DNA of 16,180 nt, taken from the IMG/VR virus record IMGVR_UViG_2529292886_000014, positions 1 through 16,180 of that record. One strand, 5' to 3'. Both the position numbers and the translations under genes were made by a program. This document shows positions 1-14,250 of this stretch, in pieces. Every line of letters starts with the position of its first letter. Positions within the stretch are counted from its first letter, which is position 1. This DNA is from a virus (lineage: Duplodnaviria; Heunggongvirae; Uroviricota; Caudoviricetes). The notes beneath the pieces are model-generated. The model had not been told where the DNA came from and ran no database searches. It saw only the letters and a list, made by a program, of their open reading frames with translations.

Positions 1-1230
1 ATGAGCAGATCACTTAACAAACTGAGCGATACACTGCTAAGGAAAATCAACGGCACACCCGCCCAAAAAACAGCCTTTCTTAATGACGGTGGAAACCTGA
101 GCGTCAGGCATTCAACCAGTGGCCTTTTAACCTGGTATTTCACTTACAGGGCCGGAACGGGAAGGGGGGCACCACCGGAACGCATTAAGCTGGGAAATTA
201 TCCTGATCTGAGCCTGAAATCAGCCAGGGAAAAAGCCGCCCAGTGTCGCGCATGGCTGGCTGAGGGGAAAAATCCACGTCATGAGATGAATTACACCGTA
301 CAGGAAGCGTTAAAGCCGGTAACGGTTGGCGATGCGCTCACCTACTGGCTTGAGTCGTACGCAAAGGAAAACCGTGTGGATTATGACCCACTGAAAAAGC
401 GGCTAAATAATCACGTAATACAGCACATTGGCCCTATGCCGCTGGATAAATGCGAGCTACGGCACTGGCTGGCCTGTTTTGATCGGGTGGCAAAGAAAGC
501 CCCTGTTTCCGCCGGGTTCCTGCTACAGACATGCAAGCAGGCGCTTAAGTTCTGCAGGAAGCGGCGCTATGCAATCAGCAACGTTCTTGATGATATGAGT
601 GTGGCGGACGTTGGGAAAAAACCGGATATAAGTGAGCGTGTCTTAAGTAACAAAGAACTTGGCGAATTATTGCAGGCACTGGACAAAAAAATATTTTCCC
701 CTTACTACGTCGCACTAATCCGCCTCCTGATTGTTTTCGGATGCCGGACAGTAGAACTGAGGTTATCGGAGAGCGGCGAGTGGGATTTTACCGAAATGCT
801 CTGGACCGTGCCGAAAGAACACAGCAAAACGAAGGTGGCAATATTCCGGCCCATACCGGAAGCAATACTGCCGTTCGTCACGCAGCTGGTGGAGCAGAAC
901 AGGCACACGGGCTTATTGCTGGGGGAAGTGAAACAGGAAACAAGCGTGTCGCAGTACGGCAGATTAGCGCACAGGAGGCTAAATCACCCTCACTGGTCAC
1001 TACATGACATCCGGCGCACCTTTACAACGATGCTGAACGATTTAGGCGTGGATCCTCACGTCGTGGAGCAGCTTACAGGCCACCAGATGCCAGGAATGCA
1101 GCGAGTTTATAATCATTCCCGTTATCTGGATGCTAAACGCAATGCGCTGGATATGTGGACGGAGTGGTTAGGGATACTGGCGGGAACACATGAAAACGTA
1201 ACCACGCTACCAGTAGCCAGAAGAAAATAA
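1..1230 (+). CDS. int: Site-specific tyrosine integrase (P4-type, N-terminal arm-binding domain)
   Basis: 409-aa ORF. N-terminus (LSDTLLRKINGTPAQKTAFLNDGGNLSV...YFTYR...IKLGNYPDLSLKSAREKA) resembles the arm-binding domain of P4-like integrases. C-terminus has HDIRRTF, LTGHQ and a Y in NHSRY, consistent with the R-H-R-Y catalytic set. Window starts exactly at its ATG. Confidence 0.9.
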   Translation: MSRSLNKLSDTLLRKINGTPAQKTAFLNDGGNLSVRHSTSGLLTWYFTYRAGTGRGAPPERIKLGNYPDLSLKSAREKAAQCRAWLAEGKNPRHEMNYTVQEALKPVTVGDALTYWLESYAKENRVDYDPLKKRLNNHVIQHIGPMPLDKCELRHWLACFDRVAKKAPVSAGFLLQTCKQALKFCRKRRYAISNVLDDMSVADVGKKPDISERVLSNKELGELLQALDKKIFSPYYVALIRLLIVFGCRTVELRLSESGEWDFTEMLWTVPKEHSKTKVAIFRPIPEAILPFVTQLVEQNRHTGLLLGEVKQETSVSQYGRLAHRRLNHPHWSLHDIRRTFTTMLNDLGVDPHVVEQLTGHQMPGMQRVYNHSRYLDAKRNALDMWTEWLGILAGTHENVTTLPVARRK

Positions 1231-1594
1231 TTTTTTTCGTGTTTTTTCAGTATGCGCATACTGGATATGCGAACAGATACAACGTGCAACAATGAGCAAC
1301 AATGTGGAACAACTACGAACAAGAGGCGAAAAAGCGTACGGATTTATAAGTGGCTGATTTTTAATGTGTTGCTGGTTTTTTATACACTAGCGAATCACTC
1401 TTTAAAGAGCGAGAAAAAAGGCATGAAACAATATTTTATGCCTTTGTATTAACATGAATTTAAAATATTTTATTCTTACTGTTTCATTTTCTGTAAATCA
1501 TACATCCTCAGTATTTGCCATTCATCACTCTAGCGGGAACAATACGACACAATAAGACACCTGATGACTCTTTAAGAAACGAAAGGGGGCAATA

Positions 1595-1783
1595 GTGTTA
1601 AGCACTGATCGGTTTATACGTGAAAAAGAATGCGAAAAACTAACCGGCCTTAGCCGTACGTGTCGCTACCGCCTGGAAAAGGCCGGACAATTCCCATCAC
1701 GTCGTAAACTTGGCGGTCGTTCCGTTGGCTGGTCTTTATCCGAGGTTCTGGCCTGGAAGGATAGCTGCAAGGCAGTTCATTAA
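1595..1783 (+). CDS. alpA: AlpA-family phage regulatory protein (excisionase-like HTH)
   Basis: 62-aa ORF with GTG start at 1595 preceded by SD AGGGGG (1584-1589). Sequence ...LTGLSRTCRYRLEKAGQFPSRRKLGGRSVGWSLSEVLAWK matches the AlpA/Xis-type HTH pattern (recalled, not searched). Position directly after int is typical of P4-like elements and PICIs. Confidence 0.8.
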   Translation: MLSTDRFIREKECEKLTGLSRTCRYRLEKAGQFPSRRKLGGRSVGWSLSEVLAWKDSCKAVH

Positions 1784-1929
1784 TCACGCTGGCGGCACGC
1801 AGCCGCCACACATCAATCATCTGAACACAGAGCTATAACCATGAAGATTGAATATACGCCAGAACGTGGGCGGGGATTCGTTCGCCCTGGTGAAACTGAA
1901 AAACAACAAAATTGGGGTTTTTCAGGCAT

Positions 1930-1957
1930 AAAAAAAGCGGCCCCGAAATGGAGCCGC
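1930..1957 (-). terminator. Rho-independent terminator for the minus-strand RHH operon
   Basis: Minus-strand RNA reads GCGGCUCC-AUUUC-GGGGCCGC (8-bp stem, one G-U wobble) followed by UUUUUUU (plus-strand A-run 1930-1936). It sits about 95 bp downstream of the minus-strand ORF ending at 2053 and before the converging alpA. Confidence 0.55.
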
Positions 1958-2052
1958 CTTTCTGAACAGATAACCCGCTGCGCCGTTTGTGTGTGTGATT
2001 CCAAACATAAGAACGGCAATGATAGCCGCTATCAGGCTGGTGGGCAATGCAA

Positions 2053-2226
2053 TCAGTCTGGTTCAGTTCGTTGCCATACCTGCAATGAGCGCGTTTCCCT
2101 GTACTCTTTAAGGAATTGCTCAAGGGCAAAAGCACATGGCGCGAATCTTTCTGATTCATGCTCTATCTTTCTGCGCCGTCTTTTCCGTGCCGGTGATAAT
2201 GTTTTGGTCAATTCTTTATCGGTCAT
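2053..2226 (-). CDS. Hypothetical small basic protein (57 aa), second gene of the RHH operon
   Basis: Minus-strand ORF MTDKELTKTLSPARKRRRRKIEHESERF... Start taken at the second ATG (2224-2226), preceded by AGGA at about 7 nt. Lies between the RHH gene and the minus-strand terminator. No recognisable family; could be non-coding. Confidence 0.3.
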   Translation of the reverse strand: MTDKELTKTLSPARKRRRRKIEHESERFAPCAFALEQFLKEYRETRSLQVWQRTEPD

Positions 2227-2283
2227 TGTGTTGTCCTGCATAGCAATGCGCCGTAATACCTTACACCACGGCGCTGATGGTGA

Positions 2284-2589
2284 TTACTCTGGTTCTTTGG
2301 TCTTGCGGCGCTGGAGTTCTTCACGTGCGACAGTGACGAGCTGCCCGATCTCCTCGGCGGCTTTGATTCCGAGTTTTTCCACCTGCGCCAGTGCATCGAG
2401 CGAAGAAACCAGGGGATTTTCTCCACTTCCTTCTGCCTGGCGCCGGGCGATCTCACCGCGTACAGCCGTAACTATAAAATTCGCTTTAGTTTCCCCTGGC
2501 TGTAGGGATGCCTCAATGCCACTCACTACTTCATGTGGAAATCTGGCATTCAGTTGCTGTGACTTATTGTTAACAGAACTCCTGGACAT
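2284..2589 (-). CDS. Arc/Mnt-like ribbon-helix-helix DNA-binding protein (putative satellite repressor)
   Basis: Start ATG at 2587-2589 (minus) preceded by SD GGAGGT with 6-nt spacing. 101-aa product MSRSSVNNKSQQLNARFPHEVVSGIEASLQPGETKANFIVTAVRGEIARRQ...; the LNARFPHEV...ANFIVTAVRGEI block parallels the Arc N-terminus (FNLRWPREV...). The track ORF (2284..2769) carries a 60-codon N-terminal extension judged spurious. Confidence 0.65.
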   Translation of the reverse strand: MSRSSVNNKSQQLNARFPHEVVSGIEASLQPGETKANFIVTAVRGEIARRQAEGSGENPLVSSLDALAQVEKLGIKAAEEIGQLVTVAREELQRRKTKEPE

Positions 2590-2632
2590 GTTTGCACCTC
2601 CCATTAATAACGGGATGCAGTGTAATACAAAA

Positions 2633-2686
2633 GTGAATACCAAAAAAGACTTGAAATGGTATTCACCTAAATGTAATGTGAATACC
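2633..2686. promoter_or_regulatory. Operator-like array of three 9-bp half-sites between divergent transcription units
   Basis: GTGAATACC at 2633-2641, its reverse complement GGTATTCAC at 2658-2666, and GTGAATACC again at 2678-2686. Located 44-97 bp upstream of the RHH start codon and about 110 bp upstream of the first plus-strand gene (2795). Confidence 0.45.
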
Positions 2687-2794
2687 ACAAGTGCTGATAC
2701 ATGCAATTCAGCAATTGAAACGACGAAGCCCCGCACTGTTGGAGCAGTAACGGGGCTTCTAACCACCAACGATAACGAGAGTATCGAGGTAGCT

Positions 2795-2998
2795 ATGAGA
2801 AATCATACCACACACCCGCAAGGGCGGGACCCGCACAACCTGAATAAATACATCTGGCGTTTTATCGCCCTGAGTACGGCACAACCGCGCGTGATTACCA
2901 TTGAGGCCAGCAGCGAACAGGAAGCACGCCAGCAATCCCCGGCTGGCTGCGTGATGGTATTCGCCGCCCGTATTCGTCAGGGGGTGTTCCATGCCTGA
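2795..2998 (+). CDS. Small protein (67 aa), possibly Icd-like cell-division inhibitor family
   Basis: ATG at 2795 with SD GAGG at 2786-2789. Product MRNHTTHPQGRDPHNLNKYIWRFIALSTAQPRV...VMVFAARIRQGVFHA. The THPQG and IWRF/FAARI motifs resemble my recollection of 'Icd-like' small proteins of P4-like prophages (unverified). Stop overlaps the next start (ATGCCTGA). Confidence 0.4.
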   Translation: MRNHTTHPQGRDPHNLNKYIWRFIALSTAQPRVITIEASSEQEARQQSPAGCVMVFAARIRQGVFHA

Positions 2999-3311
2999 CA
3001 TGACCAATTACCAGTACCTGATTAATCCGCATTTTAACTGTGAGCATGATATTGCTAAAAAGGTTTATTCCGCTGCTGATGGGGCTACTGACAATATATC
3101 AATGGCTGTTGCCTCAATTGGTAACCTGATGTGGTATGCGTCAGAAAATGAGGAATATGACGAAAAGGCCATGCGCATTGACATGGGGAATATTGGCTTG
3201 TTACTGGCAATGCTTGGGCAGTTTGATATTTCGTTACGGTGCACCATTGAAAATGCCGCAGATGCATTAAATGCCATAAAGAAAGCGAATACTGATTCAA
3301 ATCGGGGATAA
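2991..3311 (+). CDS. Hypothetical protein (106 aa)
   Basis: ORF with SD AGGGGG about 6 nt upstream; start/stop overlap with the preceding gene. No family recognised. Confidence 0.55.
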   Translation: MPDMTNYQYLINPHFNCEHDIAKKVYSAADGATDNISMAVASIGNLMWYASENEEYDEKAMRIDMGNIGLLLAMLGQFDISLRCTIENAADALNAIKKANTDSNRG

Positions 3312-3317
3312 ATAATC

Positions 3318-3617
3318 ATGAGAACATATTTATCTGGCTTGACTGCCAGCGGTTATGCACACCCTAAAATTATCCCCGGCGCTATTTATCTGGATAAGAA
3401 CGGTAACAGAGTAACGGTAAAAGAACTGATGTTTGACCGTGTGTATTTTATTCGTGATGGCTATTCATTTCATAGTTCGCTGAACGTGGAGATCTTTATT
3501 AGCAGATTCCGGCGGGAAATCCCGACTTCCAGAAATAACCATGTGTCACGTGTGGATGTGGATAAAAAACTACAGGAACTGAAAAACATGATTGCCTCGT
3601 GGAGAGAGCAGAAATGA
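3318..3617 (+). CDS. Hypothetical protein (99 aa)
   Basis: ORF starting 7 nt after the previous stop. Its stop overlaps the primase start (ATGA at 3614-3617). No family recognised. Confidence 0.55.
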   Translation: MRTYLSGLTASGYAHPKIIPGAIYLDKNGNRVTVKELMFDRVYFIRDGYSFHSSLNVEIFISRFRREIPTSRNNHVSRVDVDKKLQELKNMIASWREQK

Positions 3618-5431
3618 AAAAAGCGCCAAATTTAAAACACCAGCCACGTGACAAAATGACGGAAGTCATCATTTTTGCGGGTAGTGATGCGTGGGCACAT
3701 GCGAAGCAGTGGCAGGAACAGGACGGGCGACTGGCTGGCGATAACGTGCCACCTGTCTGGCTTGGAGAGCAACAACTTGCCGAACTGGACAACCTGCAAA
3801 TCGTACCGGACGGACGCTATCGCGTGCGTCTCTACCAGGCGGGGTTATTGCGTCCTGGGCTTGTTAATACCATCGGGCAGAAACTGGCAGCGGCAGGTGT
3901 CAGGGATGCTGATTATTATCCTGAAGGAATGCACAGCCAGAAACGGGAGAACTGGCGCGAATATCTGGAACGTGAGCGGGGAGAGCTGGCGGAAAAGAAA
4001 AAGGTAGTTGAACTGCCTGTAAAGAAAAAAGAGCGGGTAAAAGACGATAACGCTTCATCACTGGCGCTTAACCAGATGGGAGCAAGTCAACGCGGCGAAG
4101 TTCTCCTGGCACATTATGGCGGGGAACTGGCGATTCATGCCGACTCTGACACTGTTCACCATTACAACGGCGTTATATGGGAGCCGGTTCAGGATAAAGA
4201 ATTACAGCGAGCTATGGCACAGATTTTCATTGATGCGGAGATCAGCTATTCGCAGAACGCCATTAAATCGGCGGTCGATACCATGAAGTTAAGTTTGCCT
4301 GTAATGGGGAATACAGCCCGTAACCTGATTGGATTCAGTAACGGGGTATTTGATACCAGAACAGGTAATTTTCGGGAGCATAACAAAAACGACTGGTTGT
4401 TAATTGCCAGTGAATTACCTTTCAGCCCACCAGCAGAGGGGGAAACGCTGGCAACACATGCGCCGAATTTCTGGAAGTGGTTACGCCGTTCGGTGGCTGA
4501 GAATGACCGCAAGGCGGATCGCGTACTGGCTGCATTATTCATGGTGCTGGCGAACCGGTACGACTGGCAGTTATTCATTGAGGTAACAGGTCCAGGGGGA
4601 AGTGGTAAAAGCGTGATGGCGGAGATTTGCACCATGCTGGCGGGTAAGGCCAACACAGTATCGGCAAGCATGAAGGCGCTGGAAGATGCAAGGGAACGCG
4701 CGTTAGTGGTTGGCTTTTCGCTGATTATCATGCCGGATATGACCCGCTACGCTGGTGATGGGGCAGGGATTAAGGCTATTACAGGCGGTGACAAGGTGGC
4801 AATTGACCCGAAACACAAAGCCCCCTACTCAACGCGTATTCCGGCAGTAGTGCTGGCGGTTAACAATAACGCCATGTCATTCAGTGACCGCAGCGGGGGG
4901 ATCTCACGTCGTCGGGTGATATTCAATTTTTCGGAAGTTGTACCGGAGAACGAACGCGATCCAATGCTGGCGGAAAAAATAGAAGGTGAGCTGGCGGTAG
5001 TGATTCGCCATCTGCTTACACGGTTTGCTGACCAGGACGAAGCCAGACGCCTGTTATATGAGCAGCAGAAATCTGAAGAAGCACTGGCGATAAAGCGAGA
5101 GGGGGATTCGCTGGTGGACTTCTGCGGCTATCTCATGGCGTCGGTAATGTGTGATGGCCTGTTAGTGGGTAATGCTGAAATTGTACCATTCAGCCCACGC
5201 AGGTATCTCTATCATGCCTATCTGGCTTATATGCGGGCACATGGGTTTGGTAAACCTGTAACACTGACGCGCTTCGGTAAAGATATGCCGGGGGCAATGG
5301 CGGAATATGGCAGGGAGTATATGAAACGGAAAACGAAGCACGGTTTGCGTTCAAACGTGACACTGACGGAGGAATCAGAAGACTGGATGCCATCATGTGT
5401 ATCGGTCACTAATGACGATAGCAAAAATTAA
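3614..5431 (+). CDS. P4 alpha-like primase-helicase (replication initiator)
   Basis: About 605 aa from the ATG at 3614 (SD GGAGAGAG at 3601-3608); the track ORF begins at an upstream GTG (3599). Walker A motif GPGGSGKS in the C-terminal half, consistent with the P4-family primase C-terminal NTPase domain (recalled). Immediately followed by TGTTCACC iterons, the sequence bound by P4 alpha. Confidence 0.85.
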   Translation: MKKAPNLKHQPRDKMTEVIIFAGSDAWAHAKQWQEQDGRLAGDNVPPVWLGEQQLAELDNLQIVPDGRYRVRLYQAGLLRPGLVNTIGQKLAAAGVRDADYYPEGMHSQKRENWREYLERERGELAEKKKVVELPVKKKERVKDDNASSLALNQMGASQRGEVLLAHYGGELAIHADSDTVHHYNGVIWEPVQDKELQRAMAQIFIDAEISYSQNAIKSAVDTMKLSLPVMGNTARNLIGFSNGVFDTRTGNFREHNKNDWLLIASELPFSPPAEGETLATHAPNFWKWLRRSVAENDRKADRVLAALFMVLANRYDWQLFIEVTGPGGSGKSVMAEICTMLAGKANTVSASMKALEDARERALVVGFSLIIMPDMTRYAGDGAGIKAITGGDKVAIDPKHKAPYSTRIPAVVLAVNNNAMSFSDRSGGISRRRVIFNFSEVVPENERDPMLAEKIEGELAVVIRHLLTRFADQDEARRLLYEQQKSEEALAIKREGDSLVDFCGYLMASVMCDGLLVGNAEIVPFSPRRYLYHAYLAYMRAHGFGKPVTLTRFGKDMPGAMAEYGREYMKRKTKHGLRSNVTLTEESEDWMPSCVSVTNDDSKN

Positions 5432-5442
5432 ACTTATGGAAT

Positions 5443-5667
5443 AACTGTTCACCACTGTTCACCCTGTCATAAATATCTTTTATATCAGTATATTATAGGG
5501 TGAACAGTTATTTATGAACTGTTCACCAAACTATTCACTGTTCACCTTTTTGATTGTTTATTGAGCTTCAAGGGTGAACAGTGGTGAACAGTTGGTGAAT
5601 AGTTTTTGTGAAACTGTTCACCCATTAACATTATGAATTAAAAGATAAAATATCAAAAGGTGAACAG
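5443..5667. repeat. Iteron array, putative origin of replication (P4 ori/crr-like)
   Basis: About 10 copies of the core TGTTCACC / GGTGAACA (often extended to AACTGTTCACC) in both orientations within 225 bp of AT-rich DNA: 5443-5453, 5454-5463, 5499-5509, 5517-5527, 5536-5546, 5573-5582, 5583-5593, 5594-5604 (degenerate), 5612-5622, 5659-5667. Confidence 0.75.
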
Positions 5668-5718
5668 GTGAAGGGTTAAAACGCAAAAATTTTAATTTAC
5701 TGCTGTGAGATAAAGCCT

Positions 5719-5964
5719 ATGACAGCGAAGCACACAAAAAAATCACAATCGCACGCCCTTGATTTGACGGAACACTGGTTAAGGGTGTCGATAAAAATCA
5801 TCGACCGCAACGCCGGGGAAGGATATGCGAAAGCACATCCCGAACTAATAAGCGCATTCATGACCACGGCGGCGGCAAACTTTGCCACGCTGACGGAACG
5901 GGAGATTGCCGAAGCGGAACAGGTAACAACCATCAACGTTAAAACCGGAGAGGTGGAATCATGA
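5719..5964 (+). CDS. Hypothetical protein (81 aa)
   Basis: ORF between the iteron origin and ssb. Its stop overlaps the ssb start (ATGA), suggesting translational coupling. No family recognised. Confidence 0.5.
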   Translation: MTAKHTKKSQSHALDLTEHWLRVSIKIIDRNAGEGYAKAHPELISAFMTTAAANFATLTEREIAEAEQVTTINVKTGEVES

Positions 5965-6371
5965 CAGCACAGATAGCCGCTTACGGGCGGCTGGTGGACG
6001 ACCCGCAGGTAAAACAGACCAGCAAGGGCACACCGATGACGCTGGCGCGTATGGCGGTCCCCCCTCCGTGCAGCCAGGCAGATGACGGAACGGCGACGAT
6101 GTGGTTATCCGTCCTGGCATTTGGCAGACAGGCCGAAGCACTGGCAAGGCACCGCAAGGGTGAACTCCTGAGCGTGGCGGGTAACATGCAGATCAGCCAG
6201 TGGACCGGACAGAACGGGGAAACACTGCAGGGTTATCAGGTTATTGCAGACAGCGTAATCAGTGCCCGCGCGGCACGTCCTGGCGGGAACAGACGCAAAA
6301 CCACAGGCACACAGGGTAATCAGCCACCAGCGGGAGGCGATGACCCTTACGGTGACGGTATTCCGTTCTGA
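5961..6371 (+). CDS. ssb: Single-stranded DNA-binding protein (SSB-like)
   Basis: SD GGAGG at 5948-5952. OB-fold-like pattern G.L..DP.V...G...W..V..FG..AE.....RKG...G...W....G that parallels E. coli SSB, a Gly/Pro/Gln-rich linker, and the C-terminal tail ...DDPYGDGIPF (compare SSB ...DDDIPF). Confidence 0.75.
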   Translation: MTAQIAAYGRLVDDPQVKQTSKGTPMTLARMAVPPPCSQADDGTATMWLSVLAFGRQAEALARHRKGELLSVAGNMQISQWTGQNGETLQGYQVIADSVISARAARPGGNRRKTTGTQGNQPPAGGDDPYGDGIPF

Positions 6372-6381
6372 GGGGGTGACG

Positions 6382-6654
6382 ATGGTACATGACCGCATAG
6401 CGGAAGAACTCGAGGCGAAAGGCTTTTACCGGAGGGCGGCGGCGCGATGGGGTGAAGTCATGCAGCTGGTGGAGACAGACAAGGAACGGCATCACATCAC
6501 GATGCGACGGCTGGAATGTTGCAGGAAGGCACAGAGGCCACCGGAGCCACCGGATAATTACGGAGACCTGAAAAAGGCAGTCGATCGCACTTATGCCGAA
6601 ATGGGGATAGATGGTGCTGGTGATGAAATATGGCGCAATTACCAGGACAGCTAA
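6382..6654 (+). CDS. PerC-family-like small transcriptional regulator (90 aa)
   Basis: ATG at 6382 preceded by SD GAGGGGGTG. The N-terminal motif AEELEAKGFYRRAAARWGEVM resembles the PerC/Pch family signature as I recall it (unverified). The track ORF 6262..6654 overlaps ssb and is judged N-terminally over-extended. Confidence 0.5.
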   Translation: MVHDRIAEELEAKGFYRRAAARWGEVMQLVETDKERHHITMRRLECCRKAQRPPEPPDNYGDLKKAVDRTYAEMGIDGAGDEIWRNYQDS

Positions 6655-6660
6655 TCACAC

Positions 6661-6684
6661 AGCCGGAGAAATCCGGCTTTTTTT
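6661..6684 (+). terminator. Rho-independent terminator
   Basis: AGCCGGA-GAAA-TCCGGCT followed by TTTTTTT, directly after the stop at 6654. Confidence 0.7.
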
Positions 6685-6779
6685 GCACCAGTTGAAACGG
6701 TATGGCGCATTACCGGGTTTTCGTCACGGTCTGGCATAGTTACTATCTGAAACAAACAGACACAACAGAGGAAAAAACA

Positions 6780-7004
6780 ATGCCGATGAAATTTGATGAG
6801 ATATTAAAACAGCGTGATAAATACCATGCTGACAACATGGAGACGATGAGCATCAATGATTACCGCGCATTCCTGGAGACGGGCGCACTGATTGAAAAGG
6901 ATCAGCATGGTTTTGTTAGATGTGCTCTATCCGGTGAAATGCTGGCGGTAAATCCTGAACAGATAGATGCAATGATAGAATTTCTGAAAGGGATCAGGGA
7001 CTGA
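6780..7004 (+). CDS. Hypothetical small protein (74 aa) in a terminator-bracketed cassette
   Basis: ATG at 6780 preceded by SD GAGGAAAA. The track ORF begins at an upstream ATG (6702) with no SD. Flanked by the two near-identical terminators. Confidence 0.5.
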   Translation: MPMKFDEILKQRDKYHADNMETMSINDYRAFLETGALIEKDQHGFVRCALSGEMLAVNPEQIDAMIEFLKGIRD

Positions 7005-7013
7005 GCACGCATA

Positions 7014-7036
7014 CAGCCGGAGCAATCCGGCTTTTT
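7014..7036 (+). terminator. Rho-independent terminator (near-duplicate of 6661-6684)
   Basis: AGCCGGA-GCAA-TCCGGCT followed by TTTTTGTCATTTTTTG. Same stem as the upstream terminator, different loop. Confidence 0.7.
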
Positions 7037-7056
7037 GTCATTTTTTGTAAATTATT

Positions 7057-7083
7057 TGTTCGTGGTTGTTCCACGTTGTTCAC
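7057..7083. promoter_or_regulatory. Dyad element TTGTT-CGTGG-TTGTT-CCACG-TTGTT upstream of the head operon
   Basis: CGTGG (7061-7065) and CCACG (7071-7075) are reverse complements, separated and flanked by TTGTT. A half-copy TTGTTCCACGTTGTT recurs at 14581-14595. Confidence 0.35.
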
Positions 7084-7263
7084 TGACAGGATCGGCATAT
7101 TTTACCCGAACTGAATCATGATTATTCTCGCCCGTGGTGCCAGGACGCTGGGGCCATTTTTCCCGCCTGTTAATGTGTTCACCAATATTCATTCATTACC
7201 AGGCGGGAAAGCAATCGGTGCGTTTACTGATTTCCTTATGAAAAAGCGTTGAGTTTTTGCCGC

Positions 7264-7300
7264 GTCCTGGAGTTCCTTACTTAACCCCAGGACTTTTTTT
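7264..7300 (+). promoter_or_regulatory. Hairpin plus T-run abutting the capsid gene start (possible attenuator or RBS-sequestering structure)
   Basis: GTCCTGG (7264-7270) and CCAGGAC (7287-7293) form a 7-bp stem with a 16-nt loop, followed by TTTTTTT (7294-7300) and the capsid ATG at 7301. The only SD-like AGGA lies inside the right arm of the stem. Confidence 0.3.
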
Positions 7301-8458
7301 ATGCCGAGAATAATCGAATTACGCCAGCAGAAAACCGCCATTAAAAATCAGATGCGCGACATGCTGGAGAACGCGGAAAAAGAAAACCGCAGCCTTAACG
7401 ATGCAGAGGGCGCAAAATTTGACGAATTACGCGCTAAAGCTGAATCCCTCGATAAAGACATTTCCCGCCTTGAAGCCATTGCAGACGAAGAGCGCAGCAA
7501 GCCAGGTAAAAGCAGCCAGACCACTGACCCGGCAGAACTCCGCAACTACATCCTGACAGGTGAAACCCGCGCATTAAGTACAGGTGTCCCCGCTGATGGT
7601 GGTTATACCGTTATCCCTGAACTGAACACCGAAATCATGCGAATGCTGGCGGATGAGTCCACCATGCGCCGCATCTGTACCGTGAAAAAAATCAGCAGCA
7701 ACGAGTTTAAGCAGCTTGTTTCCGCTGGCGGTGCGGTCGTTAACCACGGTGAAGAGGGTAAGGCACGCGAACAGACCAGCACCCCGCAGATTAACGAGGT
7801 GAGCATTAAGCTGTATCCGGTCTATGCGTACCCGCGCACCACACAGGAAATCGTGGATTTTTCCGATGTGGACATCCTTTCATGGCTGACGGGCGAGATT
7901 GGCGACACCTTCACGGAAACCGAAGAAAGTGATCTGGTTGTGGGCGACGGTGACAAAAAAGCAAAAGGTTTTTTATCCGTACCCCGTGCAGAGAAGAACG
8001 ACAAAGAACGTGATTTCGGAACGTTGCAGGTTATCAAGCCCGTTGATGATCTTGCCTGGACATCTGCGGACCCGCTGATCGATCTGAAATTTGCATTACG
8101 TAAAAAATACCGCAAGAACGCGGTATGGGTGGTTAACTCCACGACGGCGGCAAAACTCCAGAAGGTGAAGAATGCGAACGGGGATTATATATGGCGTGAC
8201 CGTTTACAGGCGGGTGATCCTGACACATTGCTGGGCCTTCCGGTCGAATATCTGGAGTTTATGCCGGATAACGTTATTGCCCTGGGCGACTTTAAACGCG
8301 GTTACTACATCGTTGATCACGAAACAGGTGTTCGCACCAGACCGGACAACCTGACAGAACCAGGATTCATCAAAATTTTCACGCAAAAATATTTAGGCGG
8401 TGGCGTGGTGGATTCGAACGCGATCAAGATTCTGGAACTGCCACAGGACGACGATTAA
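7301..8458 (+). CDS. Major capsid protein, HK97 fold, with N-terminal coiled-coil delta/scaffold-like domain
   Basis: 385 aa. The N-terminal ~100 aa are charged and helical (RQQKTAIKNQMRDMLENAEKENRSLNDAEGAKFDELRAKAESLDKDISRLEAIADEE). The C-terminal part LLGLPVEYLEFMPDNVIALGDFKRGYYIVDHETGVRTRPDNLTEPGFIKIF fits the HK97-family capsid pattern (recalled). Confidence 0.9.
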   Translation: MPRIIELRQQKTAIKNQMRDMLENAEKENRSLNDAEGAKFDELRAKAESLDKDISRLEAIADEERSKPGKSSQTTDPAELRNYILTGETRALSTGVPADGGYTVIPELNTEIMRMLADESTMRRICTVKKISSNEFKQLVSAGGAVVNHGEEGKAREQTSTPQINEVSIKLYPVYAYPRTTQEIVDFSDVDILSWLTGEIGDTFTETEESDLVVGDGDKKAKGFLSVPRAEKNDKERDFGTLQVIKPVDDLAWTSADPLIDLKFALRKKYRKNAVWVVNSTTAAKLQKVKNANGDYIWRDRLQAGDPDTLLGLPVEYLEFMPDNVIALGDFKRGYYIVDHETGVRTRPDNLTEPGFIKIFTQKYLGGGVVDSNAIKILELPQDDD

Positions 8459-8468
8459 CAGCATACAG

Positions 8469-8497
8469 AAGGGGCTAAAAAGCCCCTTTAGTGTTTT
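8469..8497 (+). terminator. Intrinsic terminator/attenuator downstream of the capsid gene
   Basis: AAGGGGCT-AAAA-AGCCCCTT followed by the T-rich tail TAGTGTTTTATG, between the capsid stop (8458) and the protease start (8514). Confidence 0.55.
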
Positions 8498-8513
8498 ATG
8501 GGTGAAAAAAATT

Positions 8514-9071
8514 ATGAAGAGTATGGAAATCCGGTCATCGGAAATCACCACCAGCGCCAGCAACACGCTTACAGGCTACGTTGTTCGCTGGGATAACCTT
8601 TCGGAACTGTTATGGGGGGAGTTTTACGAAAAATTCCAGCGGGGGGCGTTTACTGAGTGGCTTGCGGCGGGTAATGACGTTCGCGGCCTGTATGAGCATG
8701 ACCACAGCATGTTACTGGGGCGCACCCGTTCCGGCACGCTGAAACTGGAAGAGGACGACACAGGGTTACGCTTTGAACTTACCCCACCGGATACCAGCAC
8801 AGGGCGTGACGTTATCGAACTGGTTAAACGTGGTGATATATCCGGCATGAGCTTTGGCTTTCGTTCCCGTAAGGATGTATGGGATACCACAACAGATCCA
8901 TGCGTGCGCACCGTGCTGGTGGCGGAACTGTACGAAATTACCGTTACATCCGTACCGGCTTACCCCGATTCCGGCGTGGAGCTGGCCCGCCGTTCCCTGT
9001 ATGAGCAGCACCCCGAAAAAATGCCGCGTGCGGATAATCGCCGCTGGTGGGCGGATTTAGCGGGGGTGTGA
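8514..9071 (+). CDS. Prohead maturation protease, HK97 family
   Basis: 185 aa from the ATG at 8514 (the track ORF is extended to 8400 across the terminator). Motifs TGYVVRWDN, GLYEHD and GMSFGF match the HK97 prohead protease family (recalled). Confidence 0.85.
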   Translation: MKSMEIRSSEITTSASNTLTGYVVRWDNLSELLWGEFYEKFQRGAFTEWLAAGNDVRGLYEHDHSMLLGRTRSGTLKLEEDDTGLRFELTPPDTSTGRDVIELVKRGDISGMSFGFRSRKDVWDTTTDPCVRTVLVAELYEITVTSVPAYPDSGVELARRSLYEQHPEKMPRADNRRWWADLAGV

Positions 9072-9072
9072 T

Positions 9073-10284
9073 ATGTGGCCTTTCAGAAGAAAAAAAGAGC
9101 AGCGCAGCATGACGCTTGATGAATTTATGGCGCTGGCTGGCACATCGAACACGGGGGCGGGTGAGTACGTATCATCGGGGACAGCGGAATCACTCCCCGC
9201 CGTCATGAACGCCGTCACGGTCATCTCTGAGGCGGTGGCTACTATGCCATGCTACCTGTACCTGGTACGCAATGAGAAGGGGAAGGAGGCCCGCGAGTGG
9301 CTTGATTCTCATCCGGTCGATCATATCCTCAACGAGCGCCCGAACGCATGGCAAACCCCCTACCAGTTTAAGCGAATGATGATCCGCCACTGCCTGTTAA
9401 ACGGTAATGCTTACGCGGTGATTCAGTGGGGGCGTGATGGTTTTCCGGCGGCTTTACATCCTTACCCGCCGCAGTCGGTGAACGTGGAGCAGACAGGAGA
9501 ACACAACTGGCGCTATTGCATCACTGACGCCTACACCGGAAACACCCGCAACTATTTACCGTGGGAAGTACTTCACCTTCGTTACTCCACGGATGACGGC
9601 TTTATGGGGCGCTCACCTGTAACCATCTGCCGCGAATCGCTGGGGCTTGGGCTGGCCCAACAACGCCACGGCGCGAGCGTGATGCGTGATGGCATGATGG
9701 CGGCAGGGGTTATCACGTCAGGCGAATGGCTGGACGGCGTGAAAGGCAAACAGGCATTAGCCGCACTGGAACGCTATAAAGGGGCCAAAAACGCCGGAAA
9801 AACGCCCATCCTTGAAGGGGGCATGAGTTACCAGCAGCTGGGCATGAGTAACCAGGACGCCGAATGGCTGGCCTCCCGTCGCTTCACCATTGAAGACATC
9901 GCCCGAATGTTCAACGTCTCGCCGATTTTTCTGCAGGAATACAGCAACAGCACCTACAGCAATTTCAGCGAGGCAAGCCGCGCATTTCTCACCATGACGA
10001 TGCGCCCGTGGCTGGCGAACTTTGAGCAGCAGATAAAAAACGCCTTGCTGGTGGTCTCGCCTGTACCTGGTATCCGGTATCAGGTGGAGTTTGACAGCGC
10101 GGACCTGTTACGGGCCACACCTGGCGAACGCTTTGCCACCTATGAGCGAGGCATCAAATCCGGTGTTATGTGCCCGAACGAAGCCCGCGAACGAGAAGGG
10201 TTGTCTCCGCGTGATGGTGGTGATGAGTTCAGCCAGGCATGGAAACAGGAAGTAAAAATCAGCGAGGGAGAAAAACCGGAATGA
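9073..10284 (+). CDS. Portal protein, HK97 family
   Basis: 403 aa. Motifs NERPNAWQTPYQF, LLNGNAYAVI, GRSPV, EDIARMFNVSPIFL and NEAREREGLSP...GGD follow the HK97-family portal pattern (recalled). Starts 2 nt after the protease stop. Confidence 0.85.
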   Translation: MWPFRRKKEQRSMTLDEFMALAGTSNTGAGEYVSSGTAESLPAVMNAVTVISEAVATMPCYLYLVRNEKGKEAREWLDSHPVDHILNERPNAWQTPYQFKRMMIRHCLLNGNAYAVIQWGRDGFPAALHPYPPQSVNVEQTGEHNWRYCITDAYTGNTRNYLPWEVLHLRYSTDDGFMGRSPVTICRESLGLGLAQQRHGASVMRDGMMAAGVITSGEWLDGVKGKQALAALERYKGAKNAGKTPILEGGMSYQQLGMSNQDAEWLASRRFTIEDIARMFNVSPIFLQEYSNSTYSNFSEASRAFLTMTMRPWLANFEQQIKNALLVVSPVPGIRYQVEFDSADLLRATPGERFATYERGIKSGVMCPNEAREREGLSPRDGGDEFSQAWKQEVKISEGEKPE

Positions 10285-10619
10285 ACATAGGGCGACTGCG
10301 TGACAGGGTAACGATTCAGACCCTGAAACAGACCAGAGCCATGACGGGCGAAATACTCGAAACGTGGGAGGACGGTCACACACTCTGGGCAAGCGTGAAC
10401 ATGGTCAGCAGCAAGGAGGCCATTTCATCGGGTGCAGAGCTGGCGATTGGTACCGTAAGGATCTGGATACGGTACCGGAAGGACATCAACGCCACCAGCC
10501 GGATAAAGGTCAATACGGGGCCGCTGGCGGGGCGTGTACTGAATATCATCGGGCAGCCGCTGCCGGATGCCGCCAGGACACGCCTTGAAATTCTTTGTCG
10601 TGAGGGCGCGGAAAAATGA
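10281..10619 (+). CDS. Head-closure / head-tail joining protein (HK97 gp7-like)
   Basis: 112 aa from the ATG at 10281 (SD GAGGGAG; ATGA overlap with the portal stop). The N-terminus MNIGRLRDRVTIQ matches the head-tail joining family motif (recalled). Confidence 0.75.
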   Translation: MNIGRLRDRVTIQTLKQTRAMTGEILETWEDGHTLWASVNMVSSKEAISSGAELAIGTVRIWIRYRKDINATSRIKVNTGPLAGRVLNIIGQPLPDAARTRLEILCREGAEK

Positions 10620-10912
10620 CAGAAGAACTTATCACCCTAGAAGAAGTGAAACTCCATTGCCGCATCGATGGCGACGAGGAAGACCAGTTAATCAGCGGAT
10701 ACATTGCCGCATCGCTTGAGGCGTGCCAGATACACATAGGCAGGCGCTTTGATGACGGGCTGGAGTTCACGCCAGCCATAAAGATTGGCTGCATGATGTT
10801 TATCGCTCACCTGTATGAGAATCGCCAGATTGTCGCGGATAACGCAAAAACACACGTACCCATGACGATTGGCGCACTCTGGACGGCTTACCGTGATGTG
10901 GGGGTGTACTGA
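10616..10912 (+). CDS. Head-tail connector protein (gp6-like)
   Basis: 98 aa. N-terminus MTEELITLEEVKLHCRIDGDEEDQLISGYIAASLEACQIHIGRRF matches the gp6-like connector signature (recalled). Confidence 0.8.
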   Translation: MTEELITLEEVKLHCRIDGDEEDQLISGYIAASLEACQIHIGRRFDDGLEFTPAIKIGCMMFIAHLYENRQIVADNAKTHVPMTIGALWTAYRDVGVY

Positions 10913-11352
10913 TGCCGTGGCAACCATTAAGACGATGTACAGAACCAGGCTGCAACAGGCGCGTGAAGTCCGGCAAGTGTGAGGAGCACAGACGCAGCGC
11001 ACGCCAGCAGCAGGACAGCCGGAGAGGCAGCAGCAGGGAGCGAGGGTATACGAGGCAGTGGGAGAAATACCGCGCCATGTATCTGAGTAAAAACCCGTTA
11101 TGTGCGCATTGCCTGGAAAAAGGAATATACACGCCCGCCGTGGTGGTGGATCACATTATCCCAATCGATGGCGGTAATGATGTTCTCTTCTGGCCTGAGT
11201 GGAATCATCAGCCATTGTGCCAGGCGTGTCATAACCAGAAAACGAAATGGCTTGATCCGTCCACAAAAAACAAGCGTGCTGCGGGTGGATTCCGTGAGGA
11301 GGAAGAACGGGCCGCTAACCGCAATAACTGGATGTATGGCGCTGATGAATGA
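10912..11352 (+). CDS. HNH endonuclease (terminase-associated)
   Basis: 146 aa. CxxC pairs (CTEPGC, CAHC) and the HNH core VVDHIIPIDGGNDV...NHQPLCQACHNQKT. Start overlaps the previous stop (TGATG). Sits directly upstream of terS/terL. Confidence 0.9.
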   Translation: MPWQPLRRCTEPGCNRRVKSGKCEEHRRSARQQQDSRRGSSRERGYTRQWEKYRAMYLSKNPLCAHCLEKGIYTPAVVVDHIIPIDGGNDVLFWPEWNHQPLCQACHNQKTKWLDPSTKNKRAAGGFREEEERAANRNNWMYGADE

Positions 11353-11518
11353 GCGGGAACAAAACCGCCTTATCCGTGGACTTATAAGGCAGCGTGACGC
11401 ATGGAAGGCACAGGAAACAGGGCATAAAGATAAAGCATCAGGACGCGCAGAACGCATCACAGCGACGCGATTAAACGACCGTGACCGCGAGGTTATGGAA
11501 TGTTTCCGCAATCGCTGA
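11345..11518 (+). CDS. Hypothetical small protein (57 aa)
   Basis: In-frame ATG at 11345 within track ORF 11102..11518, overlapping the HNH stop; product MNEREQNRLIRGLIRQRDAWKAQETGHKDKASGRAERITATRLNDRDREVMECFRNR. No clear SD and no family recognised. Confidence 0.3.
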   Translation: MNEREQNRLIRGLIRQRDAWKAQETGHKDKASGRAERITATRLNDRDREVMECFRNR

Positions 11519-11640
11519 TGAGGCAGCCGGACGGGGTGGGGGGAGTTTTCAGGACGAACCCGACCCCGCCCAGAACCGAACGCCTCCTCAAATTTTTATG
11601 CACGGGAATTTTTTGAAAAATAATCTGACGAAAAATAAGC

Positions 11641-11997
11641 ATGGCAAGACCACCGAAAGCCCCCGCCTACCTGGATGATATCGCCGTGAAGCAGTGGCGG
11701 GAAAAATCGCGGCAGCTTGCGGAGCGGGGAGACCTGACCCCCGCCGACTGGAGCAATCTGGAACTGTATTGCGTCAACTACTCCATTTACCGGAAAGCCG
11801 TTGCAGACCTTGCGGCGCGCGGGTTCAGCATTGTTAACAGTCAGGGCGGCGAGAGCAGAAACCCCGCATTAAGCGCAAAATCCGACGCTGAAAGGGTGAT
11901 GATAAAAATGGCCTCCTTGCTTGGTTTTGACCCGATAAGCCGCCGTAAAAATCCACCGGAAACAGAAGAAGAGGACGAGCTTGACCGCCTGGAATAA
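11641..11997 (+). CDS. terS: Terminase small subunit (P27-family-like)
   Basis: 118 aa. Pattern MARPPKAP.YLDD.A...W......L...G.LT.AD...LE.YC..Y..YRKA...L...G....N..G....NPA......A...M.K.A..LGF.P..R matches the P27-type small terminase (recalled). Confidence 0.9.
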   Translation: MARPPKAPAYLDDIAVKQWREKSRQLAERGDLTPADWSNLELYCVNYSIYRKAVADLAARGFSIVNSQGGESRNPALSAKSDAERVMIKMASLLGFDPISRRKNPPETEEEDELDRLE

Positions 11998-13642
11998 GTA
12001 CGCAGAAGACGTAAAAACGGGCAAAATTCCGGCCTGTAAACGGCTGAAACAGGCCGTTAAACGGTACTTTTCGGACCTTGAAAGCCCCCTTTACACGTTC
12101 GATCGTGAGGTTGTGGAGCGGTTTATTGCCTTTTCCAGGGTGTGCCCGCACGTAAAAGGGCCGATGCGTGGCAGACCCATTGAGCTGGAGCCGTGGCAGC
12201 AGTTCGCCTTTGCGTGCATCCTCGGCTTTAAGGTTAAGGCCACCGGACGGCGCAAATACACGAGCGCCTTTATCGAAGTGCCGCGCAAAAATGCGAAATC
12301 CACGACCGCCGCGATTCTGGCTAACTGGTTTCTGATTATGGAGAACGGTCAGCAGGATATCTACACCGCAGCGGTGAGCCGTGACCAGGCGCGGATCGTC
12401 TTTGATGATGCGCGTCAGATGTGCCTTTTATCCCGACCGTTACGCAGGCGGGTGAATATTCAGGCGCATAAGGTGATACACCCGAAAAGCAACAGCCTGT
12501 TAAAGCCGCTGACAGGAAAAGCGGCAACCATCGAGGGAACAAACCCCAGCCTTTCCATCGTGGACGAATACCACTTGCACCCCGATAACGGCGTTTATTC
12601 CGCGCTTGAGCTGGGGATGGGCGCACGTCCCGAAGGGCTGTTATTTGCCATTACCACATCAGGCAGCAACGTCGTTTCAGCCTGTAAGCAGCACTATGAT
12701 TATTGCTGTCAGATCCTGGACGGCGAAGAGGTCAACGATTCAATTTTTGTACTGATTTACGAACTGGACGACGAAAACGAGGTTGATGATCCGGCGATGT
12801 GGATAAAGGCTAACCCTAACATCGATGTTTCCGTGGATCGTGAAAAACTGGCCTCAACCATCCAGAAAGCGCGGGGTATTCCGTCGCAGTGGGTGGAGAT
12901 GATGACAAAGCGATTTAATATCTGGTGTCAGGGGACTACCCCGTGGATGGGTAATGGTGCATGGGCTGAGTGTGCCGGAACGTTCACGGAGGAAGATTTA
13001 CACGGTCAGGAGTGTTACGCGGGGCTGGACTTATCATCAACCAGCGATATTTCCAGCGTGTGCTATGCCTTTCCGGTCGGTAAAAATATCATGCTGGTTT
13101 CCCGTCATTATCTGCCGGAGTTCCAGCTACAGAACCCCGCCAATAAAAACCGCGCTGTCTATCGCCAGTGGGCTAAAGCGGGCTGGATACGCACAACGCC
13201 AGGTGACTGCATTGATTACGACCGGATCAGAGATGACATCATGCAGGACGCGGAGAAATTTAATATCAGGCTGGTGGGCTTTGATACGTGGAACGCCACG
13301 CATCTCAGGACGCAATTACAGGGGGCTGGTTTTGAGGTGGAGCCGTTCCCGCAAACCTACCTCAGATTCAGTCCGGCGGCGAAATCGTTCGAAGTTTTTG
13401 TTAACCGCAGGGTGATTGTGCATCGTGGCGATCCGGTGTTGTCCTGGTCGATGAGTAACGTCGTGATGCAGAGTGACGCGAATGCCAATATCAAGCCGAA
13501 CAAGAAAAAATCACCGAACAAGATAGACCCGGGCGTGGCGGCACTGATGGCGTTTGGTACATTCCAGGCAGAGCATGAGGATTTTGCTTTTGATATAAGC
13601 GACAGCCACCGCCAGAAACTGGAAGAATTTAGCGGGGTGTAA
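11981..13642 (+). CDS. terL: Terminase large subunit
   Basis: 553 aa. The track start is a TTG at 11981 preceded by GAGGA and overlapping the terS end; the true start is uncertain. Walker-A-like VPRKNAKST, an acidic ATPase motif SIVDEYH, and a C-terminal nuclease-like region fit large terminases. Confidence 0.9.
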   Translation: MTAWNKYAEDVKTGKIPACKRLKQAVKRYFSDLESPLYTFDREVVERFIAFSRVCPHVKGPMRGRPIELEPWQQFAFACILGFKVKATGRRKYTSAFIEVPRKNAKSTTAAILANWFLIMENGQQDIYTAAVSRDQARIVFDDARQMCLLSRPLRRRVNIQAHKVIHPKSNSLLKPLTGKAATIEGTNPSLSIVDEYHLHPDNGVYSALELGMGARPEGLLFAITTSGSNVVSACKQHYDYCCQILDGEEVNDSIFVLIYELDDENEVDDPAMWIKANPNIDVSVDREKLASTIQKARGIPSQWVEMMTKRFNIWCQGTTPWMGNGAWAECAGTFTEEDLHGQECYAGLDLSSTSDISSVCYAFPVGKNIMLVSRHYLPEFQLQNPANKNRAVYRQWAKAGWIRTTPGDCIDYDRIRDDIMQDAEKFNIRLVGFDTWNATHLRTQLQGAGFEVEPFPQTYLRFSPAAKSFEVFVNRRVIVHRGDPVLSWSMSNVVMQSDANANIKPNKKKSPNKIDPGVAALMAFGTFQAEHEDFAFDISDSHRQKLEEFSGV

Positions 13643-13655
13643 TGAGGTCAGCAGC

Positions 13656-13937
13656 ATGACAGAAGCCGAAATACTGCGATTAATCCGCCGCGTCTCTGGA
13701 ATCAGCCAGCAGGCTGACGAACAGACCACGCAGCCGGACAGCGTGACAGCCGAAAATTATGCGCGTGTTGTTGCTGAGGTGATGCGCCGTGATGGTATCC
13801 AGCTTAATGATGTGGATATGCGCGACATACGGATCCGCGTTCTGGAAATGCTGGCCTATCGTCGCCGCGTGGAGATGTATCGGGAGAAGGAAAAAATAAC
13901 GTACCACTGGAAGAAGCCGGAGCGCTTGCGGCGGTAA
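13656..13937 (+). CDS. Hypothetical protein (93 aa), last gene of the element
   Basis: ATG at 13656 with SD GAGGT about 7 nt upstream, 14 nt after the terL stop. Charged and helical; no family recognised. Confidence 0.5.
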   Translation: MTEAEILRLIRRVSGISQQADEQTTQPDSVTAENYARVVAEVMRRDGIQLNDVDMRDIRIRVLEMLAYRRRVEMYREKEKITYHWKKPERLRR

Positions 13938-14230
13938 CTGGTTGATATTCCCGACGGCCCAAAAATGGGTGGCTACATCCCTCGCTTCTGAGGACTGTTA
14001 ACAAGCTGCCTGAAAGACAGTCACAAACTACGAAATTTTCGCAGTTTAATTAATGGTCAGCTTAATCGCTAACCCGCTGATATTTTCGGAAACCTCAATT
14101 TGAGGAAGTCGGCGCGGTAACTCGCTGAACTTAAAGCAAAGCTCAAAATTGAGCTGGCTGAATAATCATTATGATTACGCAGATGATTAAGGAATGACCG
14201 AAGGCGGAAATTCGCCTGTGGTTGATGGGG

Positions 14231-14250
14231 GAGTTGCAGATCTGCAACTC
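14231..14250. repeat. 20-bp perfect palindrome GAGTTGCAGATCTGCAACTC
   Basis: Read directly; the reverse complement is identical. Embedded in an ORF-poor stretch with several other dyads. Confidence 0.8.

Follow-up and report, generated by a model that had tools for sequence, protein, structure and literature searches.

Phage-inducible chromosomal islands (PICIs) of Gram-negative bacteria as well as capsid-forming PICIs (cf-PICIs) are induced via the activator AlpA, which the helper phage activates (PMC6092414; bioRxiv 2022.09.08.507074). Activation of alpA by the helper and autoactivation by AlpA were shown for EcCICFT073 and EcCIEDL933 (PMC6092414; bioRxiv 2022.09.08.507074), and over-expression of AlpA alone induces EcCICFT073 (PMC6092414). 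No repressor is known in Gram-negative PICIs (PMC6092414). The founding paper on Gram-negative PICIs left it unclear whether there is a global repressor, with the activator AlpA alone known. In the satellite P4, the eta open reading frame (ORF) is coupled to an alpA homologue and contains an internal constitutive promoter, and immunity-specific termination is prevented when eta is translated from the late promoter upstream (PMC10111431). The corresponding zone of satellites has been described in a survey as made up of Bro-network genes and immunity RNAs (PMC10111431). Here, IMG/VR record IMGVR_UViG_2529292886_000014 (positions 1 to 16,180; this whole 16,180-bp stretch is referred to as the window), which by its gene layout is an Escherichia coli satellite of the cf-PICI type, was found to carry a minus-strand gene for a 101-aa YlcI-like protein between alpA and the primase gene. 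Together with the repeats upstream of it, this gene probably forms a cognate repressor-operator module on the operon that begins with an icd-like gene and leads to the primase gene, with an eta-like translated read-through as a proposed bypass.

An earlier description of this DNA, made without database searches and called here the sequence-only reading, had proposed an autoregulated, divergently transcribed repressor. The 101-aa ORF that it reported is present as claimed, with a Shine–Dalgarno sequence (GGGAGGTG, 2595–2602) 5 nt from the ATG, and both the Shine–Dalgarno sequence and the length of the ORF are conserved. The three half-sites that it located at 2633–2686 are three exact repeats, but of 10 bp and not 9 bp. 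The 10-mer GTGAATACCA was found at the sites designated O1 and O3, and its reverse complement at O2 (Table 1), with no further exact copy in the window, where ~0.03 would be expected with both strands counted. A fourth site, O4, is weak in the window, with ~5–6 of 10 positions matching.

The region was compared across ~20 related loci in eight genera, comprising loci of E. coli, Enterobacter, Phytobacter, Yersinia, Xenorhabdus and Photorhabdus together with one Klebsiella element, a contig labelled Martelella and another from a metagenome. Absence of the repeats from homologous elements had been named as an observation that would speak against a repressor; instead, sites with type-specific sequences were found at the same positions, near -100, -77, -53 and -30 from the ylcI ATG. 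They alternate in orientation from O1 to O4 in most operator types and are arranged two plus two in others. In 12 of 14 loci, the -35 element of the divergent promoter (TTGACA/G in most loci) has a fixed location at -66 relative to the ylcI ATG. In the cross-locus plan, O2 falls in the spacer of the rightward promoter (P_icd) and O1 just past its -10 element, and in related loci the TATAAT-like -10 element of the leftward promoter (P_ylcI) lies between O3 and O4. The promoter positions given here rest on this conservation, as a simple sigma-70/terminator consensus scanner found neither divergent promoter.

The sequence of the sites was found to vary with that of the N-terminal strand of the protein. 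The strand QQLNAR or QQINAR is paired with the site (T/G)ATTCAC in E. coli, Phytobacter and Yersinia, QQIGAR with GGTTCAC, QSLTAR with TGTAAG in E. coli and Enterobacter, and QLTTVR with GTGTGTTTC in Xenorhabdus, Photorhabdus and E. coli. CFT073 has the strand QALKAR and the site GGTGTGGCCCAC, and further types differ again. Within a type, operators share an identity of 0.77 versus 0.60 for the spacers, and between types the values are 0.44 and 0.45, which is background. The window and one related locus, L001, are 93–100% identical over the flanking ~900 bp but diverge sharply across a segment that contains the operators and the first 45 codons of ylcI (Table 1). The AlpA and Icd-like proteins of these two loci are ~97–100% identical despite wholly different operators, and thus neither can be the partner that determines operator specificity.

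The pair GTGAATACCA-N14-TGGTATTCAC occurs 13 times in 2.9 million viral contigs (IMG/VR), in each case (13/13) 44 bp upstream of a QQLNAR-type gene. The possibility that the repeats are also carried by helper phages was ruled out, as all 13 matches are satellite-sized contigs with the cognate gene. Given the fixed sites, the co-variation of site and strand, the swap of the module and the linkage in 13 of 13 occurrences, repression of the icd-like/primase operon with autoregulation, as the sequence-only reading had proposed for the replication operon, appears to be the best reading. Specificity is inferred to reside in strand residues 12 and 14, together with the invariant R16.

On its sequence, the 101-aa protein is a member of the YlcI/YnfO family, matching the NCBIfam model NF041551 (YlcI_YnfO_N) over residues 9–50 with 60.8 bits (cut-off 30; E 9.6e-17). 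It falls below the cut-off of Pfam DUF3950, which is passed by the relatives L033 and P0147 (29.9 and 28.4 bits versus 25). Relatives in a Klebsiella cf-PICI-like element pass it. Approximately 128 homologues with 50–100% identity were found in Enterobacterales. A set of 1.8 billion representative proteins contained no more than 31 clusters (50% identity), and a tblastn search of 50,697 phage records with the window protein gave no match. The E. coli K-12 proteins YlcI (prophage DLP12) and YnfO (Qin) belong to the same NCBIfam family and to Pfam DUF3950 but, unlike the window protein, are short, and they are uncharacterised. Their genes presumably lie in the late regions of lambdoid prophages. 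The searchable literature describes neither the family and its role nor a function or operator for the K-12 proteins, and later surveys list YlcI/YnfO merely as 'prophage-associated protein'.

It is likely that the N-domain has an Arc-like ribbon-helix-helix (RHH) fold. The motif Q12-L-N14-A-R16-F-P-H-E-V can be placed beside Q9-F-N11-L-R13-W-P-R-E-V of Arc. Positions 12 and 14 are polar and variable, R16 is invariant (R16-x-P18), and positions 13, 15 and 17 are hydrophobic, giving the alternating pattern of a strand, and a G32-E33-T34 turn (G-E-T/S in the family) precedes helix 2. In hhalign, the match to Arc is in the correct register but sub-threshold, P being 5.6e-4 when Arc was used as a single sequence and 1.3e-4 (probability 54%, 25 columns) when an Arc alignment was used. 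A match to PSK_trans_fac, which we take to be an RHH-type family, reached 17.5 bits (cut-off 28.3) for the window protein, and sub-threshold matches to it were found in 21 of 30 family members. The Arc/Mnt-like RHH label of the sequence-only reading is thus borne out by the register of the Arc similarity, but that similarity is sub-threshold, the family is YlcI/YnfO, and no Pfam RHH model (Arc PF03869, RHH_1, CopG and similar) was above its cut-off.

Sequence-profile searches of the PDB with the full-length and N-domain alignments gave no RHH match. An AlphaFold2 (AF2) monomer model has helices at 19–28, 35–52 and 59–98 and a strand region of low confidence, and fold searches returned coiled-coil matches only. 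Modelling of a natural tandem-domain relative, P0134, as a pseudo-dimer was uninformative (predicted local distance difference test score 57). Residues 59–98 form one long, coiled-coil-like helix, which the short family members lack, having a basic tail (KRRQRRK) in its place. A weak resemblance, from the PDB searches, of the C-terminal half (2284–2415, residues 59–101) to the helix-hairpin-helix of Hef (E 0.022) was rejected, as it disagrees with the single 40-residue helix of the AF2 model.

The Arc-like reading also draws on E. coli O157:H7 elements, in which the same slot is occupied by a different 57-aa gene with a motif of the Arc type and with GGTAATTACC palindromes of its own; 44 columns of its product could be aligned with the YlcI N-domain (P 2.2e-4). 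In strain TX 376-2 (L002), this gene is unannotated (3785–3958, minus strand) and is preceded by two ACATGGTAATTACC repeats. The C-terminal tail that it encodes, RKELQQRGIEPKG, matches the tail of some long YlcI forms, suggesting mosaic exchange. A further unannotated gene, for a 67-aa YlcI/DUF3950 protein, was found in the 16.5-kb genome of Escherichia phage vB_KppS-Ant (L033; 2086–2289, minus strand). It lies antisense within an annotated ORF of 324 aa that has an Icd-like domain at its end. Though deposited as a phage, this genome looks like a cf-PICI-sized element.

The minus-strand cassette was found to consist of two genes. The sequence-only reading had regarded the 101-aa ORF as the sole sizeable minus-strand gene, which is incorrect because a conserved 62-aa ORF, orf62, lies between ylcI and the terminator, 42 nt from ylcI. 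Homologues of orf62 keep this position in other E. coli loci and are missing from most non-E. coli loci, and no match to its product was found in Pfam, NCBIfam or PADLOC, nor any recognised toxin family or defence match. The minus-strand terminator claimed at 1930–1957 is real and extends to 1962, with a predicted fold of -22.4 kcal/mol (z = -3.2) that none of 200 shuffles equalled; it was missed by the consensus scanner. On the plus strand, 1876–1969 gave a sub-threshold Rfam match to the Salmonella small RNA STnc50/STnc40 (25 bits, gathering score 55), which probably reflects only the hairpin.

The plus strand opposite this cassette is also open. Between the stop codons of alpA (1783) and the icd-like gene (2998), the frame of the latter is free of stops, and this frame has 0 stops over ~700 nt in 12 of 14 loci, versus 12–22 in each of the other two frames. 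The first ATG of the long ORF is located 16–57 nt past alpA in enterobacterial loci, and in an Enterobacter locus (L017) a single ORF has an N-terminal Bro-N domain and a C-terminal Icd-like domain. The P4-type nested arrangement, an alpA-coupled long ORF with a short gene nested in frame ahead of the primase gene, is therefore present. The translation antisense to YlcI is rich in Cys, Ser and Arg. As the long ORF is open, yet the YlcI frame is conserved better than the frame antisense to it (BLOSUM 3.12 versus 2.43 per site), both strands appear to be used. PGAP is inconsistent in its annotation of equivalents of the long ORF, which it calls an 'icd-like pseudogene', an 'ash family' pseudogene or a long Icd-like protein. 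Pipelines call the long ORF or the small gene, and some records miss the ylcI-type gene altogether.

The interval described by the sequence-only reading also contains a GC hairpin at 2725–2759 that was not mentioned there; together with orf62 and the eta/kil-like long ORF, the structure to which it belongs had been overlooked. This structure (2715–2800, minus strand) is a candidate antisense RNA of ~80 nt, predicted from a small 5' stem-loop (2771–2785) that faces the icd-like Shine–Dalgarno region, the hairpin at 2725–2759 as terminator, and a T tract (2715–2724). The minus strand folds better than the plus strand in 14 of 14 loci, and RNAalifold gave 25 pairs, of which 10 show compensatory changes. 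On the minus strand 96.9% of cells pair, versus 85% in shuffles and 36–41% with slid partners. The value for the plus strand is lower (84.9%) because 41 G-U pairs (versus 2 on that strand) turn into A-C mismatches. A putative -10 element, TATGAT (2802–2807), reported as ~7 nt upstream of the icd-like start codon, has invariant T, A and T positions in 13 sequences, which could also be explained by coding for the icd-like N-terminus. Rfam identified no family in the whole window at gathering thresholds and, at E <= 10, no family, in particular no C4, isrK or CI, in 1780–3050.

Table 1. Features of the region from alpA to the icd-like gene, with positions in the 16,180-bp window
Feature	Position	Strand	Description
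alpA	1595–1783	+	Activator gene, context; long ORF begins just 3'; Pfam Phage_AlpA 5.4e-17
eta-like long ORF	1841–2998	+	385 codons; antisense through terminator, orf62, ylcI, operators and leader; in frame with icd-like gene
Intrinsic terminator	1930–1962	-	Terminator of the ylcI-orf62 transcript; GC stem and U7; U tract poor on plus strand
orf62	2053–2241	-	Small basic protein; co-oriented 3' of ylcI; phrog_21027 3e-16
ylcI-like gene	2284–2589	-	101 aa; probable RHH N-domain (~10–52), long C-terminal helix (59–98); NF041551, phrog_6522
Specificity module	2455–2718		Operators and codons 1–45; sliding identity of window and L001 47–70%
Degenerate site O4 and P_ylcI -10	2612–2629		-10 TACACT (2619–2624, minus strand); position equals O4 and TATAAT/TATACT of other loci
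Operator O3	2633–2642	+	GTGAATACCA; within P_ylcI spacer
Predicted icd-like/primase promoter (P_icd)	2651–2679	+	-35 TTGAAA (2651–2656), 17-nt spacer with O2, -10 TAATGT (2674–2679)
Operator O2	2657–2666	-	TGGTATTCAC on plus strand; between P_icd -35 and -10
Operator O1	2678–2687	+	GTGAATACCA; overlaps last two -10 bases (2678–2679) and P_icd start site
Inverted repeat, 10 nt	2688–2717		CAAGTGCTGA / TCAGCAATTG; start of predicted P_icd leader, 5' end of rightward transcript
Candidate cis-antisense RNA	2715–2800	-	~80 nt; opposite icd-like ribosome-binding site and start codon; strand-specific, covarying
icd-like gene	2795–2998	+	NF033153 phage_ICD_like 1.7e-19; gene 1 of replication operon; nested in frame in long ORF

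In the mechanism proposed, the N-terminal 50 residues of YlcI would form an Arc-like RHH dimer, with the long C-terminal helix probably linking dimers, and YlcI would bind the three strong 10-bp sites and the weak one, 21–24 bp apart. Two helical turns apart, O1–O4 would share one face of the DNA, where dimers could be bridged by the C-terminal helix. At the rightward promoter for the icd-like, DUF4222 and primase genes, O1 and O2 would cover the start site and the stretch between -35 and -10, while O3 and O4 would cover the core of YlcI's own leftward promoter. In the integrated state, YlcI would thus keep the replication operon repressed and restrict ylcI-orf62 transcription, predicted to end at the terminator, and any leaky rightward transcripts would be silenced by the antisense RNA at the icd-like ribosome-binding site. 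The allelic types, each with its own operators, would be exchangeable in the manner of a phage immunity region.

On induction, the helper would switch on alpA, and AlpA would activate its own promoter. Transcripts would continue past alpA and be translated through the long ORF. The hairpin at 1930 has no good U tract on the plus strand. Convergent transcription would oppose ylcI expression. Polymerase and ribosomes would then run in frame into the icd-like gene and on to the primase gene, bypassing both the repressor and the antisense RNA. Such a read-through would explain how AlpA alone can induce an island despite a repressor, and it argues against the repressor as the target of the helper. 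The sequence-only reading had pictured a helper-encoded derepression of this repressor, which is unsupported, since published induction proceeds via helper-activated AlpA (PMC6092414; bioRxiv 2022.09.08.507074). A bypass is suggested instead by the long translated ORF, which is conserved and runs from alpA across the cassette.

Several observations weigh against a repressor with this role. The operators and the protein are physically linked, and shared descent could explain part of their co-variation. The predicted promoters in the window are weak (TTGAAA / TAATGT), O4 is degenerate, and the prototype EcCICFT073 has in the same gene slot a 59-aa form only. Induction of EcCICFT073 by over-expressed AlpA alone indicates that a repressor is not the sole gate.

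This last point also bears on the possibility that YlcI binds the sites but serves as a feedback limiter in the induced cycle, in the manner of Arc in P22 immI or of a Cro-type protein, and not as a maintenance repressor. Quiescence would then follow from the absence of AlpA and from control at the RNA level, which would fit with the sufficiency of AlpA, the weak P_icd hexamers in the window and the likely presence of a separate RNA layer, and P22 Arc, the nearest sequence analogue, is established as such a limiter. However, ylcI has its own divergent promoter and stands outside the induced operon, hence it can be made in the quiescent state, and immunity-type allelic diversity is typical of maintenance repressors; a limiter is considered unlikely. 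There is a smaller chance still that the repeats are recognised by another factor, namely AlpA, the Icd-like protein or the central eta-like part, and that the role of ylcI is unrelated. PHROGs label Icd-like families 'transcriptional repressor', and the DNA antisense to the ylcI N-domain has been swapped along with the operators. However, the near identity of AlpA and the Icd-like protein in the window and L001, where the operators differ completely, and the composition and lower conservation of the antisense translation speak against this.

A toxin-antitoxin or addiction pair, in which ylcI would encode an RHH antitoxin and orf62 a small toxin under autoregulation, would account for the order of an RHH gene followed by a small ORF, for the operator-bearing promoter and for weak matches to the Rv0623 antitoxin family. 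This is very improbable, as orf62 has no toxin-family or PADLOC match, is separated from ylcI by a gap and is missing from most non-E. coli loci, and two of the sites are on the promoter of the divergent replication operon, where a toxin-antitoxin system would not need them. That some gene callers annotate the long ORF alone would be expected if ylcI were an unexpressed shadow ORF of the long plus-strand gene, but this can be given hardly any weight in view of the match to a curated family model at 1e-16, the conserved Shine–Dalgarno sequence and ORF length, the better conservation of the YlcI frame than of the antisense frame, and the short family members found elsewhere.

The repressor-operator module favoured here can be compared with several described systems. 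Like Arc and Mnt of P22, YlcI is a small protein with the N-terminal strand motif Q-x-N-x-R-(F/W)-P-x-E-V (QFNLRWPREV in Arc) and has repeated sites on a promoter, from which autoregulation is inferred, and the candidate RNA, like P22 sar, is probably a small antisense RNA that faces the ribosome-binding site of the gene that follows. Unlike Arc, YlcI has no significant match to Pfam Arc and carries an extra C-terminal helix of 40 residues; four sites ~two helical turns apart are found in place of the one 21-bp operator of P22 Arc, and ylcI, which sits antisense inside another ORF, diverges from its target operon. RHH dimers of the omega (pSM19035) and CopG type bind short, non-palindromic direct or inverted repeats cooperatively along the DNA, and the arrow patterns of O1–O4 would match this. 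However, the spacing of 21–24 bp differs from the contiguous heptads of omega, and a relationship in sequence was not established.

The surroundings of the module resemble the eta/kil region of P4 in having an alpA/vis-coupled long ORF with an internal promoter and a nested in-frame short gene that leads into the primase operon. As in P4, where the late promoter PLL is downstream of vis, translation from upstream would be expected to override immunity (PMC10111431). Unlike P4, the locus has no match to C4, isrK or CI RNA, it has a gene for a protein repressor embedded on the other strand, and its structured RNA is antisense and not sense. The icd-like protein also has no BLAST-level match to P4 in the phage collection, where a single record, a cf-PICI-sized 'phage', was matched.

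Stl and Rpr of Gram-positive PICIs (the Staphylococcus aureus pathogenicity islands) are likewise divergent from the replication module, and share with YlcI a proposed role in quiescence and allelic diversity. Stl is much larger than YlcI. YlcI differs from these repressors in its apparently unrelated sequence, in showing no sign of a helper anti-repressor and in belonging to Gram-negative PICIs, which are induced via AlpA. Pfam, NCBIfam and PHROG scans revealed no helix-turn-helix or cI-like domain in the window protein, and no direct comparison with Stl/Rpr was made. By analogy, the module may work like an Arc/Mnt- or omega-type RHH repressor-operator set placed inside a P4-type eta/kil region; membership of Pfam Arc, P4 CI-RNA immunity, Stl/Rpr or toxin-antitoxin systems was not established.

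The proposed assignment as a repressor is new and computational. It offers a concrete candidate, the best so far, for the repressor that Gram-negative PICIs lacked in the literature, and a first proposed function for the YlcI/YnfO (DUF3950) family. The candidate occupies the slot in EcCICFT073 and is present in capsid-forming PICIs across at least eight genera. The sequence-only reading had placed an Arc-type repressor outside the textbook Gram-negative PICI layout, which agrees with the absence of a known repressor, but EcCICFT073 carries the slot, in the 59-aa form. The predicted operator sequences and specificity residues (12 and 14) could be swapped experimentally. If the types act like phage immunity types, they would govern the coexistence and superinfection of satellites, which would bear on the engineering of PICI-based delivery vehicles.

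More broadly, and with considerable doubt, Gram-negative PICIs and cf-PICIs might share a three-layer switch, made up of an allele-specific YlcI RHH repressor, a cis-antisense RNA and an overriding, AlpA-driven translated read-through, in which YlcI-type proteins would be the missing master repressors. YlcI specificity types would then define the immunity groups of satellites. Such a switch could have gone unnoticed because gene callers annotate one strand only.

Two minor features of the operator region were also noted. The 10-nt inverted repeat next to O1 might serve as a protein site or as a 5' stem-loop, and in other operator types ACCTTG-N6-7-CAAGGT is found at its position, overlapping O1. 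Copies of the operator 10-mer with one mismatch are located inside the icd-like gene (2891–2900 and 2955–2964), 200–280 bp from O1. These could act as auxiliary sites or have arisen by chance, as ~1 such match is expected per window.

The remainder of the window is consistent with a satellite. On the plus strand, the integrase gene (1–1230) precedes alpA, and the icd-like gene is followed by a DUF4222 gene, the primase gene (3599–5431) and, further downstream, an HK97-type capsid gene. From the ORF translations, the genes after the capsid gene were read as protease, portal, HNH, TerS and TerL. PADLOC gave no match. The right end of the window is phoQ, and EcCICFT073 adjoins roxA. As roxA is, we assume, a neighbour of phoQ on the E. 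coli map, the two elements probably share a chromosomal site.

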